Shown piece by piece: positions 20,833 through 31,398 of a stretch of 64,000 nt of DNA; position 1 is the first letter of the stretch, and the number at the start of each line of letters is the position of its first letter. This DNA comes from Gammaproteobacteria bacterium. GTDB taxonomy: Bacteria > Pseudomonadota > Gammaproteobacteria > Ga0077536. The notes below the pieces were generated by a model. The model was not told the origin of the DNA. It made no database searches and was given only the letters and a program-made list of their open reading frames with translations. The stretch is from positions 11,723 through 75,722 of the forward strand of contig JAURMM010000016.1 in NCBI GenBank assembly GCA_030830685.1, given 5' to 3'. Position numbers and translations under genes: made by a program.

Positions 20833-20926
20833 GTGACTGCTGCAAGGCGCAGGTCAACCTGGAGTCCAAGGGAATGGGCCAACCGTGCGACCGGGAACTC
20901 AATACAAACTCTTAAGGAGCATCACC

Positions 20927-21370
20927 ATGCGCAGCATGCAGCGCGGTTTCACACTTATCGAACTCATGATCGTGGTGGCAATCATCGGCATTCTGGCCGC
21001 GGTCGCCATTCCGGCGTATCAGGATTACACCATTCGCGCGAAAGTGACGGAGGGCTTGGGCCTTGCGTCCGCCGCCAAGACATCTGTGTCCGAATACTTC
21101 ACCAGCGAAGGCACGCTACCGACCAATAACACGCAGGCTGGCTTACCAAGCGCTAACTCCGTCAAGGGGAATAATGTCCGGTCTGTGTCTGTCAAGGATG
21201 GGAATGTGACTATCACGTTCAATTCGAAGACGCCACAGATCGCCTCTCGGACGCTGATCCTGCGGCCAGGCACCGCCGCTGGAAGCGTAACTTGGTCCTG
21301 CACGGCGGGTGGAGACGACACTATTGCCAACAAGTACCGTCCGTCAAATTGCCGAAACATCGGCAGTTAA
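20927..21370 (+). CDS. pilA: Type IVa major pilin PilA (prepilin with 7-aa leader MRSMQRG)
   Basis: '[40 protein letters not shown]' has Gly-1, Phe+1 and Glu+5. Ser/Thr-rich alpha-beta loop. C-terminal disulfide loop C...C followed by 'RNIGS', ending in Ser. Strong RBS upstream. Confidence 0.9.
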
Positions 21371-21486
21371 GGCTGCACTTCAGAATTCCCGCCTGTACCG
21401 ATGGTCGGCATGAACTAGGCTTTTAGAGCAAGCGCATGCCGGCCTAACAAGGCTTCTGATTACCTCTAGCCCTGCAAGATAGAGGG

Positions 21487-23451
21487 GTGCATCCAGCATC
21501 CCTCTACTCTACGCTATCCTTCGCAGATCGGCCGGAAATGTATAAGGCGCTGGCGCTGATATTGTTGGGCCTTCTGGTCTACTTACCCGGACTGCCCGGC
21601 GGCTTCATCTTCGACGACTATCACAACATCGTAGATAACCCTGCGATGCGGCCGGCTGAGTGGAACTCAGAGGCGTTGGTACGTGCAGCACTGTCCAGTC
21701 CTTCCGGGCCACTGCGTCGGCCGGTGTCCAGTCTCAGCTTTCTGCTTAATTACGAAGTTTTTGGCGCTGGCGCCTTTTCCTTCAAACTGTTCAACCTGAT
21801 CCTTCACTTGGCCAATGCATGCCTGCTGTACCTGCTTGGCCGGGCACTGCTCACTCGCCTCACCGCGATGACGAGGGCAAGCTGCGATTCGGTAGCGCTG
21901 CTTGCGGCGGCGATGTGGGTTGTTCACCCGCTGAATCTGACGTCCGTCCTTTACGTTGTGCAACGGATGAACAGCCTTGCGGCCTTCTTCTGCCTGATCT
22001 CCATGTTTGCATATATGAAGATTCGCGAACGCGCCGTTCTCCCCGGAGCGACAGTGCCCTGGGCATTGTGGGGTGTCCTGATTTCAAGCGGTGTGCTGGC
22101 TTTGGGAAGCAAGGAAAACGCAGTTCTACTGCCCCTCGCGCTGTTGTTAATCGAGACGACCTGTTTTCGGTTTCGGTCGGCTCCGAAGCTCAAGTGGGGG
22201 TACTGGGTAGTTCTGCTGCTCGGTGTGGCAGGTGTCATGTTCCTTGTGCTGGAACGTGAAATTCTCACCCGCGGTTACGCCCACCGACCCTTTACAGCCT
22301 GGGAACGTGGTGCGACAGAGCTCAGGGTGCTTGCTTATTATCTCAAGCAAATTCTCTTGCCTGATCCGTTTTCCATGGCCCTCCTGCACGCTGACTTCAC
22401 AGTCTCAAGAGGCCTGTTCAGCCCACCCACAACATTTCTGGCGCTCTTGCTTCATGCGGCACTACTCGGATTTGCTTGTTGGTATCGCAGCCGATACCGG
22501 CTTTTCTGCTTCTCCGTCGCCTGGTTCTATCTTTGGCACCTGCTGGAATCCACCATTTTTCCGCTGGAACTTCTTTATGAGCACAGGAACTACCTGGCTA
22601 CTACAGGGCCGCTGCTGCTGATAAGCACACTGTTACTCCACATTCCGCGGGTTACTCCTCGCGTTCTGGTATTGACCGGTATCGGCGTGGTTCTCATTTT
22701 GGGCTCCATGACGTTCTATCGCGCTTGGCGCTGGAGTGACCCGGTCACGCTTGCCCTGCTTGAGCGGCAACATAATCCAAAGTCGGAGCGTGCTGCTTAT
22801 GAGTACGCGCGTGTACTTTTGAATGCATACACCGTCAACCGGCGAGCCGACTTGCTGCGTGAGGCACGCGAAGTGATGCGACCGCTAGCCAGCTCTGACA
22901 GTCCCGCCCCCTTGGTCCTGGTGGGATTGATAAACTCCTACCTGGTGGCAAACGAGCCCGTACCCCAACGTTGGGTCAAGCGTTTTGCCGCTCACCTAGA
23001 CCAAGGCGACCCGGACTCGGGAGATATCAATGCGCTGGAAATGCTGGTGACTTGCCAAACCCCGCCCGGCCCATGCCTGCCAGCCCCCGATGTCATACTT
23101 CAGCCGATCGGAGCAATACTTGATAACGAGGCAGCGTCGCCTGCGACCAAAGCCTTGGTGCTGGAAAAACTGGCTATCTATTATGCAAATAGCTTGGGAG
23201 ATCTGCCCGCCGCGAGGCGCGCGACAGAGGGCGCATGTTCGTACATGCCAGAGGAGGCGCTTTACCTCCTGAGGCTTGCGGAAATACAGCTGGCATCCGG
23301 CCAGACAGATCTGGCGCGCGTTACATTCAGCAATGCCGATGCACTCGCGGCCCGCAGTAGCGGGCGGCTGAGGCCATTATGGTTGGCCAGGCGTGCAACT
23401 CTTTTACGGAAGTTCGTGAGCGCCATGCAGAAAGAATCCGTTCGCTCGTGA
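21487..23451 (+). CDS. Polytopic GT-C-like glycosyltransferase with C-terminal TPR-like domain (TMTC/PMT/TfpW-like), paralog 1
   Basis: 654 aa. About 400-aa multi-TM N-terminus with a first-loop 'FIFDDYHNIVDNPAM' (DD motif resembling the TMTC/PMT/ArnT loop-1 motif) and 'ESTIFPLELLYEHRNYL'. C-terminal roughly 250 aa is helical-repeat (TPR-like). Start may be 21538 (MYKALALILLGLL). Confidence 0.62.
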   Translation: MHPASLYSTLSFADRPEMYKALALILLGLLVYLPGLPGGFIFDDYHNIVDNPAMRPAEWNSEALVRAALSSPSGPLRRPVSSLSFLLNYEVFGAGAFSFKLFNLILHLANACLLYLLGRALLTRLTAMTRASCDSVALLAAAMWVVHPLNLTSVLYVVQRMNSLAAFFCLISMFAYMKIRERAVLPGATVPWALWGVLISSGVLALGSKENAVLLPLALLLIETTCFRFRSAPKLKWGYWVVLLLGVAGVMFLVLEREILTRGYAHRPFTAWERGATELRVLAYYLKQILLPDPFSMALLHADFTVSRGLFSPPTTFLALLLHAALLGFACWYRSRYRLFCFSVAWFYLWHLLESTIFPLELLYEHRNYLATTGPLLLISTLLLHIPRVTPRVLVLTGIGVVLILGSMTFYRAWRWSDPVTLALLERQHNPKSERAAYEYARVLLNAYTVNRRADLLREAREVMRPLASSDSPAPLVLVGLINSYLVANEPVPQRWVKRFAAHLDQGDPDSGDINALEMLVTCQTPPGPCLPAPDVILQPIGAILDNEAASPATKALVLEKLAIYYANSLGDLPAARRATEGACSYMPEEALYLLRLAEIQLASGQTDLARVTFSNADALAARSSGRLRPLWLARRATLLRKFVSAMQKESVRS

Positions 23452-29653: not shown

Positions 29654-30396
29654 CGAAGCCAACGGACTCGTATCGCAAAAGCCACGTCGGACCCGGAATT
29701 GGAAAACGGTATGACCAGGCTCACGCAGGGAGACTTGATTCGCTTGTCTGGGATGAGCACGTCAAACCGCTGCTACGGGAGCTCCTTGCCCGTGAGGCCG
29801 GCCTTCATTCCGCGTCGCGCTATCTGGACTTCGCATGTGGTACTGGCCGCATTCTCAAACAGGGATTGGCATTCTTCCCTGAAGGAATCGGCGTGGATAT
29901 CTCAATTGATATGCTTACAGAAGCCAGGGCGCGTGTGCCCGGTGCTCAGCTCATACAAGCGGATGTGACGAATGACTCCCTCCCGGAGCAACTAAACGGG
30001 ATGTTCGACTGCGTGACCATGTTCCGGTTCCTGCTCAATGCCGAACCGGAACTCCGTCGGTCTGTGCTCAAGTGGCTGGCTGCACACATGCATCCGGGTG
30101 CGGCACTCATTGGTAACAATCACATGTGCTCAGCGAGCGTCGGGGGCCTACTCACCCACCTTGCGCGGACTTTTTCAGGTTCATCGAAAAACGTTCTATC
30201 GCGCAAGGAAGTGGAATCGTTGCTGGTACAAGCGGGTTTCCGCATTGAAGCCTGGCACGGCTTCAGAGTTCTTCCGTCATTGAGGGGGAAACCTGCTCTG
30301 GGTTGGTGGCTGCAGCGACGTCTGGAGCGGGTCGCGTTGACTTTGGGCTTAGGTAGATTTGGCGTTGAACAGGTGTTTGTGGCCCGAAGGATCTGA
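29650..30396 (+). CDS. Class I SAM-dependent methyltransferase
   Basis: 248 aa with motif I 'LDFACGTGRI'. 4-nt overlap with the upstream kinase-like gene. Confidence 0.7.
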   Translation: MTKPTDSYRKSHVGPGIGKRYDQAHAGRLDSLVWDEHVKPLLRELLAREAGLHSASRYLDFACGTGRILKQGLAFFPEGIGVDISIDMLTEARARVPGAQLIQADVTNDSLPEQLNGMFDCVTMFRFLLNAEPELRRSVLKWLAAHMHPGAALIGNNHMCSASVGGLLTHLARTFSGSSKNVLSRKEVESLLVQAGFRIEAWHGFRVLPSLRGKPALGWWLQRRLERVALTLGLGRFGVEQVFVARRI

Positions 30397-30408
30397 GGCC
30401 TCAGGACT

Positions 30409-31398
30409 GTGAAAGGAATTTCTGCGATCCTGCCCGCGGGCAGTGGAGCCATGGTGGTGCACCAAGCGCTTGCGGCATCGATACCCGGATACCATTGCCT
30501 GACCTATGAACCGGGCCGGGAATGGTTCCCTCCCTCACTGCTTCTGGCGCGCGGGGCGGCTGCGCCATTGGTGCATGCCCCCCCGGATCACGCTGTATGG
30601 GTTACTCCCAAAAACTCGCGGCTGCTCGTCACCGTGCACAACTATTATCTTGACGCGAGCACCAAGACGTTCAGTTCCTGTGTTCAGCGGATTCACTACC
30701 GGACAGACCTGAGGCTGTTTACCAAGCGTGCGCTTGCGAGGGCTGATGGTGTGACTGCTGTCAGCCAGTTCCTGGCGGATCTGGTACGCGACGACTTGGG
30801 CTATTCAGGCAAAATTACGGTCATACCGAACGGTATCGATCTCGGTCGTTTCCACACTCCCACCGAACGCCTCCAGCGTTCGACTGTCAGGATTCTGTTC
30901 GCGGGCAATCTCTCTGTCAGGAAGGGGGCGAGAATTCTGGAAGCCCTGCCCAGCCTCATGGATCCTTCAGCTGAGCTGTGGATCGCCAGCGGTCTGCGGC
31001 ACCAGCATTCTTCTGCGCAAATAAAGCATCAGAACGTCCGTTGGCTGGGGAGGGTTCCATTAGTCGAGATGCCGGAGCTGTACCGCAGTGTGGATATCCT
31101 TTTGCTGCCAAGTTTTCGTGAGGGATGCAGCCTGACCATGGTGGAGGCCATGGCCAGCGGACTCCCGGTGATTGCGGCCGACGCCCCCTGCTTCCGCGAG
31201 TTTCTTATGCCGGAGCAGGGCGCGTTGTTGGCGCGGCCGGGCTCTGCGGAGGAAATGGCCGAACAGATAAATCGCCTGGTTCGCGATCCGGAGTTGCGGC
31301 TACGCATGGGCAGCTTCAATCGAAATGAAGCGGTGCGTCGCTTCGACCGCTCAGTGATGATTTCCGCATATCGAGCGGCGCTGGACTCAATCTTTTGA
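30409..31398 (+). CDS. GT4-family (GT-B fold) glycosyltransferase
   Basis: 329 aa with C-terminal 'LLPSFREGCSLTMVEAMASGLPVIAADAPCFREF' (group-1 GT signature). GC content is core-like, unlike the upstream island genes. Confidence 0.75.
   Translation: MKGISAILPAGSGAMVVHQALAASIPGYHCLTYEPGREWFPPSLLLARGAAAPLVHAPPDHAVWVTPKNSRLLVTVHNYYLDASTKTFSSCVQRIHYRTDLRLFTKRALARADGVTAVSQFLADLVRDDLGYSGKITVIPNGIDLGRFHTPTERLQRSTVRILFAGNLSVRKGARILEALPSLMDPSAELWIASGLRHQHSSAQIKHQNVRWLGRVPLVEMPELYRSVDILLLPSFREGCSLTMVEAMASGLPVIAADAPCFREFLMPEQGALLARPGSAEEMAEQINRLVRDPELRLRMGSFNRNEAVRRFDRSVMISAYRAALDSIF

Follow-up and report, generated by a model that had tools for sequence, protein, structure and literature searches.

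Downstream of the type IV pilin gene pilA, a gammaproteobacterial contig carries a tightly packed block of putative glycosyltransferase genes, raising the question of whether this block glycosylates the pilin and, if so, from what donor. The block occupies 20.9–31.4 kb of the window, which is the whole stretch of 64,000 nucleotides analysed here (GenBank assembly GCA_030830685.1, contig JAURMM010000016.1, forward-strand positions 11,723–75,722), and lies between pilR (19340–20680) and suhB (31400–32176, minus strand). Glycosylation of the pilin alters the antigenicity and assembly of the pilus and its resistance to pilus-specific phages, and the characterised enzymes encoded beside pilA are of two kinds only: Wzy_C-type oligosaccharyltransferases and the arabinosyltransferase TfpW. 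The original prediction for this locus was an undescribed system in which a synthase of lipid-linked sugar feeds two large membrane transferases. The results presented here indicate that the module is a real, widespread and uncharacterised variant of a known system, neither categorically new nor unique to the source genome. With a probability of roughly 60%, the island is a pilin O-glycosylation system that acts in the manner of Pseudomonas aeruginosa TfpW, with a donor made by a family 2 glycosyltransferase (GT2) of the GtrB/ArnC/DPMS type.

Two plus-strand genes follow pilA directly, GT-C1 (21538–23451; 637 residues) and GT-C2 (23448–25340; 630 residues), and their products are paralogues (35% identity over 450 residues, E = 5e-54). 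The GTG start codon of GT-C2 overlaps the stop codon of GT-C1 (GTGA), suggesting translational coupling. Both starts were taken from a separate gene prediction, made on a contig from an independent run (L001; Logan SRR30352466), and GT-C1 is identical to the NCBI gene call P0001. This contig is 99.2% identical to the window over 8.5 kb (equivalent to positions 20117–28667; 65 mismatches and three gaps), indicating that the same island is present in at least one other sample.

The membrane half of GT-C1 and GT-C2 has no match in Pfam (E ≤ 0.01) or NCBIfam. The profile searches against PMT_2 and DUF1736/TMTC proposed with the original prediction came back empty: none of the 46 family members matches the Pfam families PMT, PMT_2 or TMTC_DUF1736 at E ≤ 1, and a profile of the membrane domain retrieved nothing from the PDB sequences at E ≤ 10. 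The GT-C assignment therefore rests on structure comparison of a predicted model. An AlphaFold2 model of GT-C1 calculated from the 46-sequence alignment (pLDDT 92.1, pTM 0.90) has about 11 transmembrane (TM) helices, two long extracytoplasmic loops (EL1, 60 residues; EL4, 58 residues) and an all-helical domain at residues 402–636. The model superimposes on solved GT-C enzymes, and its best structural neighbour is a protein O-mannosyltransferase. Comparison scores were 14.7 for AglB, 14.1 for ALG12, 14.0 for ArnT and 13.9 for STT3B, with further matches to Pmt2, Pmt1, AftD, AftA, PglB, ALG3, AftB, PIG-U, ALG9 and GPI mannosyltransferase I. The C-terminal half consists of tetratricopeptide repeats (TPR), as the family profile matches TPR proteins of the PDB with E-values reaching 5e-31 and Pfam TPR_19 is found in 41 of the 46 members.

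The motif Phe25-Asp26-Asp27 directly after TM1 is invariant in all 46 sequences, GT-C2 included, and is present in 353 of 383 relatives. Other family-invariant residues are Arg61-Pro62 in EL1, His130-Pro131, Gln142-Arg143-Met144, Lys192-Glu193 and the segment Glu-His349-Arg350-Asn351-Tyr352, which sits in the TM9–TM10 loop of the GT-C1 model; GT-C2 keeps every one of them. TMTC enzymes are characterised by a catalytic DD in EL1, an SHKSYRP motif also in EL1 and an AERV motif before TM10 in which the arginine binds the lipid phosphate (Eisenhaber et al., PMC7801869), and three of the invariant motifs (F-D-D, R-P and E-H-R-N-Y) coincide with these in position. The short cytoplasmic loops contain approximately 11–12 lysine and arginine residues, compared with two on the short periplasmic loops; this positive-inside bias predicts an internal N-terminus and a periplasmic location for the DD motif and the TPR domain. 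The modelled fold, together with the motifs and topology, supports GT-C1 and GT-C2 as GT-C membrane glycosyltransferases with a TPR tail that are TMTC-like in architecture. The original description of tandem paralogous polytopic proteins with a first-loop DD motif and a TPR-like tail was thus accurate, including the expected periplasmic side of the motif, and the supposed homology to GT-C enzymes is visible as fold, architecture and short motifs.

The third component of the core, GT2 (25384–26262), lies on the minus strand, a detail corrected here, and is convergent with the GT-C genes. Its product matches PF00535 (1.4e-26) and, among PDB sequences, ArnC (5.9e-15), Pyrococcus DPMS (1e-9) and GtrB (5e-6). 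In the AlphaFold2 model (pLDDT 81.7), a GT-A domain is followed by three long C-terminal helices at residues 208–226, 228–254 and 259–291; a pair of TM helices is assigned to this C-terminal part. The top 21 Foldseek matches of this model are all ArnC, GtrB or DPMS enzymes aligned over their full length (about 290–317 columns; E down to 1.3e-16; TM-score 0.52–0.73), and the DxD motif, Asp90-Ala-Asp92, is invariant in 29 of 29 sequences. The full-length likeness to these enzymes argues that GT2 is a polyprenyl-phosphate sugar synthase, in agreement with the GtrB/ArnC/DPM1-like assignment made originally. The NCBIfam equivalogs searched (AglJ, DPM-like, ArnC, PpgS and PgfS) all scored far below their cut-offs on GT2, the best being AglJ (3.7e-31; 108.6 bits against a cut-off of 325), so that the sugar cannot be named from sequence. 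No nucleotide-sugar synthesis genes are encoded among the island genes, which makes a housekeeping donor likely. On the L001 contig, GT2 was called as a protein of 330 residues; a stop codon in the window limits it to 292.

The core recurs in other genomes. One genome per GTDB species was scanned and the best 80 loci were kept; they were chosen by similarity to GT-C1, and the synteny frequencies given here hold for the close family only. Directly upstream of GT-C there is a pilin gene in 62 of the 69 loci with enough upstream sequence, and an orthologue of GT2 is present in 57 of the 64 with enough downstream sequence, in 37 of them as the next same-strand gene downstream. These GT2 orthologues are 52–68% identical, far above the 30–45% of the GT-C proteins. 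The neighbourhood of pilA, a GT-C/TPR gene and a GtrB-like gene that had been proposed as a search target therefore exists elsewhere, and its order is kept across Gammaproteobacteria and Betaproteobacteria, with carriers in Dokdonella, Dyella, Rhodanobacter, Fulvimonas, Pseudoxanthomonas, Solimonas, Arhodomonas, Ramlibacter, Undibacterium, Acinetobacter tianfuensis and many metagenome-assembled genomes (MAGs). A search seeded with GT2 recovered pilS–pilR–pilA–GT-C–GT2 in a further locus (L085), and also suhB–GT2–GT4 (L083) and suhB–GT2–methyltransferases (L084), which lie at the chromosomal border also seen in the window and contain GT2 proteins 62–66% identical to that encoded here (positions 6100–9200 of L083 and L084).

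GT-C is present as a single copy in 48 of the 80 loci, as two copies in 29 and as three in the remaining three. The GT-C1 type occurs in almost every related locus and is the type of the protein in 45 of 47 single-copy loci, and clear orthologues of GT-C2 are found in the closest relatives (L002 and L003), suggesting that the duplication is old and that GT-C2 is an add-on. The MAGs closest to the window, L003 and L005 (sucC 83–89% identical), carry the titles 'uncultured Klebsiella sp.' and 'Klebsiella pneumoniae'; neither the pilS–pilR–pilA–GT-C synteny nor the GC content of about 60% suits Klebsiella, and they look like mislabelled bins. The wider GT-C family is very large. A word-indexed search retrieved 1,837 clusters with the window protein and 4,204 with the Acinetobacter homologue, while a single-sequence phmmer search of the 400-residue membrane domain against 1.84 billion representatives (clusters at 50% identity) gave 39,443 matches at E ≤ 1e-3, 15,947 at ≤ 1e-10 and 4,581 at ≤ 1e-30. 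The relatives are named 'hypothetical protein', 'tetratricopeptide repeat protein' and, twice (JGI), 'protein O-mannosyl-transferase'.

Of the known systems, TfpW comes closest. This 646-residue GT-C enzyme of P. aeruginosa group IV (strains Pa5196 and PA7) has 11 TM helices, a C-terminal TPR domain and an essential DDX motif, is encoded downstream of pilA and uses a polyprenyl-phosphate sugar donor; its closest solved template is ArnT, and the topology of loop 1 and of the C-terminus has been shown experimentally (bioRxiv 10.1101/2020.04.19.049825). Published homologues of TfpW are 30–47% identical (Villela et al. 2020). The island proteins match this description in size, in the number of TM helices, in the loop-1 DD motif, in the TPR tail and in position directly after pilA, and the topology predicted for them is that shown for TfpW. 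They differ in the presumed donor, since polyprenyl-phosphate D-arabinofuranose (D-Araf) for TfpW is made by a phosphoribosyl pyrophosphate transferase and DprE1/E2-type enzymes, whereas the GT2 here is of the GtrB/ArnC/DPMS class. They differ also in copy number, with two tandem paralogues in the window and up to three at other loci, and in that the island contains no TfpX/Y/Z-like gene. The TfpW motif YX6PFX7P of periplasmic loop 4 is found in none of 383 family proteins, which keep only YX6P; in its place, 323 of the 383 relatives have RV..Y-X6-P...H(D/A)D. The missing motif and the different kind of donor enzyme mean that membership of the TfpW family is not established. The original prediction had contrasted TfpW with the island by the presence of the donor synthase in cis; GT2 is indeed encoded in cis, but the contrast is weakened because the pilA–tfpW pair, both in P. 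indica and in K. denitrificans, is already clustered with D-Araf genes (bioRxiv 10.1101/2020.04.19.049825). The TfpW homologue of A. venetianus cited by Villela et al., WP_130134296.1, was not among the ten named Acinetobacter clusters retrieved with the A. tianfuensis homologue, all of which are named 'hypothetical' or 'TPR protein'. The Acinetobacter name pgyA was considered as an existing name for the GT-C family and rejected, as pgyA encodes a Wzy_C protein, i.e. TfpO.

The pairing of a GtrB-type GT2 with a GT-C enzyme for protein O-glycosylation is familiar from Dpm1 with PMT or TMTC and from actinobacterial Ppm1 with Pmt. The island shares the TMTC architecture (11 TM helices, long EL1 and EL4, C-terminal periplasmic TPR), but it differs in having no sequence match to PMT_2, DUF1736 or PDB entries, in a lipid that would be undecaprenyl rather than dolichyl, and in having one acceptor encoded in cis. 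In streptococci, GtrB/PgtC2 and PgfS/PgfM1 carry out Ser/Thr O-glycosylation outside the cytoplasm with a GT-C enzyme that uses undecaprenyl-phosphate-linked Glc or HexNAc (PMC11092751). Those systems resemble the island in the GtrB-type donor synthase and in the two GT-C paralogues of the Pgf cluster; they differ in that the GT-C is of the YfhO type and lacks TPR, in their Gram-positive hosts and in their targets, which are not a pilin but the disordered, Ser/Thr-rich tails of many proteins. For glycans, three-component glycosylation in the periplasm is also well described (PMC11127046). GtrA/GtrB/Gtr* and ArnC/ArnE-F/ArnT share with the island the combination of polyprenyl-phosphate sugar synthase, flippase and GT-C enzyme, and ArnC is the closest solved relative of GT2. 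Their acceptors, however, are O-antigen or lipid A, their GT-C enzymes lack TPR, and their flippase is the small GtrA or ArnE/F protein, for which the island has no room and a Wzx-like protein instead. The Wzy_C enzymes (TfpO/PilO, TfpM, PglL and PglS) likewise modify pilins, are often encoded beside the pilin gene and contribute to antigenic variation and to defence against pilus-specific phages; unlike the island proteins, they have the unrelated WaaL/Wzy_C fold and transfer O-antigen or capsule units en bloc from undecaprenyl pyrophosphate. A Pfam search found no Wzy_C or O-antigen-ligase domain in any island protein.

No description of the module was found in the searchable literature, nor any work that links GtrB or TMTC to the glycosylation of pilins. 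A review from 2025 on O-glycosylation in bacteria gives only Wzy_C-type enzymes for pilins (PMC12645811), and the pilin glycosyltransferases named in a 2025 study of pilin accessory proteins are TfpO and TfpW alone (PMC11841053). The claim that the module is undescribed is in this sense upheld, although it is widespread and not special to the source genome.

The remaining island genes were assigned, as were those above, by Pfam and NCBIfam searches of the window proteins. GT4a (26320–27549, minus strand; PF00534 2e-37, PF13439 2e-24) encodes a cytoplasmic GT-B glycosyltransferase of family 4 (GT4). It is followed on the plus strand by a Wzx-like (MOP/Polysacc_synt) polytopic membrane protein (27603–28877; PF01943 7.5e-10), a candidate flippase; a soluble 259-residue open reading frame (ORF) with the loop HGDLWMGN (28874–29653); a class I S-adenosylmethionine (SAM) methyltransferase (29650–30396; Methyltransf_25 9.7e-11, Methyltransf_23 3.6e-10); and a second cytoplasmic GT4, GT4b (30409–31398; PF13692 3.8e-25, PF00534 2.3e-24), which abuts suhB. 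The 259-residue protein has only sub-threshold matches to kinase families around its HGDxxxxN loop (Fructosamin_kin, E = 0.0043; APH, 0.02; PDB 6oid, 0.65) and is possibly a kinase-fold enzyme related to APH or fructosamine kinases. The two GT4s, the flippase and the methyltransferase listed in the original prediction are thus all recognisable, the kinase-fold enzyme less clearly so.

Similar accessory genes recur in other lineages. The commonest neighbours after GT-C and GT2 are a GT4, in 27 of 60 loci (adjoining GT2 in 21 of the 60), and a SAM methyltransferase, in 18 of 60; the methyltransferase is also present at L068, L081 and L085. Beside pilA, Dyella sp. 20L07 (L068) has a GT-C, a Wzx-like protein, a GT2, a methyltransferase, two GT4s and a GT2 orthologue, while A. 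tianfuensis has a GT-C, a GT2, a fused ABC exporter in the place of Wzx, a GT-like ORF, a methyltransferase, a GT4 and GDP-sugar genes. Homologues of the Wzx-like protein (28% identity) occur in the corresponding islands of Dyella L068 and Fulvimonas L060. From lineage to lineage the accessory genes vary in order and orientation, and in a related MAG (L006) the same pilR–suhB site contains only pilA, GT-C and GT2. Association of GT4 with an extra polytopic protein, as a candidate flippase, is a weak trend (10 of 20 loci with GT4, 8 of 27 without). Neither is present in 19 of 47 scored loci, indicating that the core works without them.

A mechanism may be proposed on this basis. GT2 would load a sugar from a housekeeping nucleotide sugar onto undecaprenyl phosphate at the cytoplasmic face of the membrane, and the lipid-linked sugar would be flipped to the periplasmic face, for which the Wzx-like protein is the candidate in the window. 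The GT-C/TPR enzymes would then pass the sugar to serine or threonine residues of PilA, with the invariant DD in periplasmic loop 1 as the catalytic motif and the TPR domain holding the pilin during transfer. GT-C1, being of the type found at single-copy loci, would be the core transferase, and GT-C2 an older accessory paralogue that may modify other sites or extend the first sugar. GT4a, GT4b, the methyltransferase and the kinase-like protein require cytoplasmic co-substrates and so would act on the lipid-linked intermediate before flipping; elaboration of the sugar at that stage is their most likely role, and this is the weakest part of the proposal.

Several observations weigh against a TfpW-like pilin glycosylation system supplied by GT2. 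Its function is deduced from the genes, the GT-C status of the modelled membrane domain comes without a sequence match in Pfam, NCBIfam or the PDB, the likeness to TfpW (AAM52060.1) was judged by the published description, which includes a loop-4 motif absent here, and the synteny frequencies are drawn from close relatives. Nor do the neighbours in 60 loci include a conserved small membrane protein of the GtrA type. An orthologue of GT2 (about 64% identical) lies in a glycan cluster of Methylomonas sp. MgM2 (L082, 7001–14879: GT2, GT4, GT11 and methyltransferase) with no pilin or GT-C gene within 7 kb, indicating that GT2 may also serve other glycoconjugates. Finally, a pure monosaccharide donor is hard to square with the cytoplasmic GT4s, with the methyltransferase and with the flippase. 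A possible, though disfavoured, scheme is that GT2 primes undecaprenyl monophosphate, GT4a and GT4b extend the chain, the methyltransferase (with the kinase-like protein) decorates it, Wzx flips it and the GT-C/TPR enzymes transfer the whole glycan to the pilin. In favour of such en bloc transfer, the Pfam searches show no enzyme for priming in the island apart from GT2, and no O-oligosaccharyltransferase or ligase of the Wzy_C type, and the GT4s, the methyltransferase and the kinase could act only in the cytoplasm. GT4 and methyltransferase genes are, moreover, the next commonest neighbours after GT2, the same set recurs with a flippase in Dyella and Acinetobacter, and the sub-threshold AglJ match is the best that GT2 has in NCBIfam; the scheme resembles the haloarchaeal AglJ/dolichyl-phosphate pathway. 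Against it, PMT/TMTC/ArnT-like GT-C enzymes are, as far as is known, transferases of single sugars, 19 of the 47 scored loci lack both GT4 and an extra polytopic protein, and GT4 and the candidate flippase are only weakly associated. To our knowledge, there is no bacterial precedent for en bloc transfer of an oligosaccharide carried on undecaprenyl monophosphate. A wider version of this scheme, in which the core of pilA, GT-C/TPR and GT2 constitutes a third class of pilin O-glycosylation in Proteobacteria beside the Wzy_C enzymes and D-Araf TfpW, and in which the expanded form builds a methylated undecaprenyl-monophosphate oligosaccharide that is flipped by Wzx or an ABC exporter and transferred en bloc, is put forward tentatively. 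If true, the en bloc form would be a new kind of O-oligosaccharyltransferase with a possible use in glycoengineering.

The accessory genes could alternatively have nothing to do with the pilin, the GT-C/TPR enzymes modifying it while the GT4s, Wzx, methyltransferase and kinase-like gene form a surface-polysaccharide or lipopolysaccharide (LPS) cassette that shares the same variable island. The pilR–suhB interval is hypervariable, with only the core in L006 and other cargo beside suhB in L083 and L084, and the accessory genes differ in order and orientation between lineages. This explanation is nevertheless rather improbable: three distant lineages have the same functional set next to pilA and GT-C, and the Pfam searches find no initiating phosphoglycosyltransferase, polymerase or ligase among the cassette genes. 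Modification of a non-protein glycan (O-antigen, core or lipid A) by the whole island, with the proximity of pilA incidental, would follow the classical Gtr/Arn logic of GT2 plus GT-C (PMC11127046) and would suit the GT2 orthologue in the pilin-less Methylomonas cluster, but it is very unlikely in view of the pilin gene directly upstream in 62 of 69 loci from two proteobacterial classes, of the fusion of a protein-binding TPR domain to GT-C, as in TfpW and TMTC, and of a protein O-mannosyltransferase as the best structural neighbour of GT-C1. Hardly to be expected at all is that GT-C1 and GT-C2 are true TfpW orthologues that add D-Araf from an unlinked pathway resembling that of decaprenylphosphoryl arabinose (DPA), with GT2 irrelevant. 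GT-C1 and GT-C2 do share with TfpW the architecture, the size, the DD motif and the place after pilA, and the D-Araf genes of P. aeruginosa are likewise unlinked to pilA; yet Pfam identifies no DprE1, DprE2 or phosphoribosyltransferase genes in the island, YX6PFX7P is absent and GT2 has an orthologue in 57 of 64 loci. Linkage to a pilin gene, the fused TPR domain and the constant GT2 partner together make both the LPS-modification and the D-Araf interpretations unlikely.

The presumed acceptor of the glycan is PilA itself. The gene (20927–21370, plus strand) encodes a type IVa major prepilin of 147 residues (Pfam Pilin 1.7e-25, N_methyl 2.4e-10) with the leader MRSMQRG; it had been identified correctly, with its start misplaced at 20885, an upstream in-frame GTG. 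PilA aligns with 64 pilins encoded upstream of GT-C genes in other genomes, and a search of the pilin alignment for glycosylation sites showed positions 34, 63, 71 and 88 to be rich in Ser/Thr, none being diagnostic. In this alignment of 65 pilins, a serine occupies mature position 63, within N-N-(A/T)-S-A-G, in 69% of the system-linked pilins; the window pilin has Gln63 with an adjacent Thr62 (mature numbering; region 59–68). We take position 63 to be that of the glycosylated Ser63 of Neisseria PilE, near Thr64 and Thr66 of the Pa5196 pilin. In Dyella L068, the region between pilA and GT-C (7927–9877) holds an ORF of 385 residues with no family match and one of 176 residues (Pilin, E = 0.008), the latter perhaps a divergent second pilin or else an accessory protein. 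The 167 bp spacer between pilA and GT-C1 contains a hairpin (21403–21444, plus strand) with a GC-rich 10 bp stem, GGUCGGCAUG/CAUGCCGGCC, and no U-tract; the predicted RNA fold of 21366–21470 has a free energy of -35.3 kcal/mol (z = -2.1). This hairpin may serve as an attenuator that separates the pilin gene from the accessory genes; terminators or attenuators behind pilin genes have been reported to reduce accessory-gene expression (PMC11841053). Promoter and terminator scans of the island gave a background level only.

The block is also set apart by base composition. The GC content at third codon positions (GC3) is 0.59–0.68 in every gene from pilA to GT4b, compared with 0.73–0.82 in the flanking pilS, pilR, sucCD, suhB and purM, and the step at the downstream border is from 0.66 in GT4b, the last low-GC3 gene, to 0.80 in suhB; this composition marks the block as a distinct island within the pilR–suhB interval. 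Further type IV pilus genes, pilD (4161–5042), pilC (5064–6287) and pilB (6291–8039), all on the minus strand, are about 13 kb upstream of pilA. As clpB, sucCD and pilSR lie between them and pilA, the pilus genes are split around housekeeping genes, with the low-GC3 island only on the pilA side. Beyond the island, the plus-strand ORFs 31460–33004 and 32940–34178 are partly or wholly high-GC artefacts: the 3' part of the former, from about 32255, looks like a real SpoU/TrmJ-type methylase, and the latter is antisense to purM (33015–34094, minus strand).

The island offers a testable donor for a very large and unnamed TfpW/TMTC-like family, and several cultured hosts carry the core, among them Dyella sp. 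20L07 (NZ_CP191483), Dokdonella fugitiva, Solimonas soli DSM 21787, Pseudoxanthomonas helianthi, Acinetobacter tianfuensis and A. johnsonii. If its function is confirmed, the range of PMT/TMTC-like protein O-glycosylation in bacteria would come to include surface filaments of Gram-negative species, and a minimal cassette of three genes (pilA, GT-C and GT2) would be available for reconstitution together with culturable hosts, as would a possible new transferase for glycoengineering. The expanded form of the island hints at the assembly of oligosaccharides linked to a lipid monophosphate, and the GT-C family could provide a tractable bacterial model for the TMTC enzymes.

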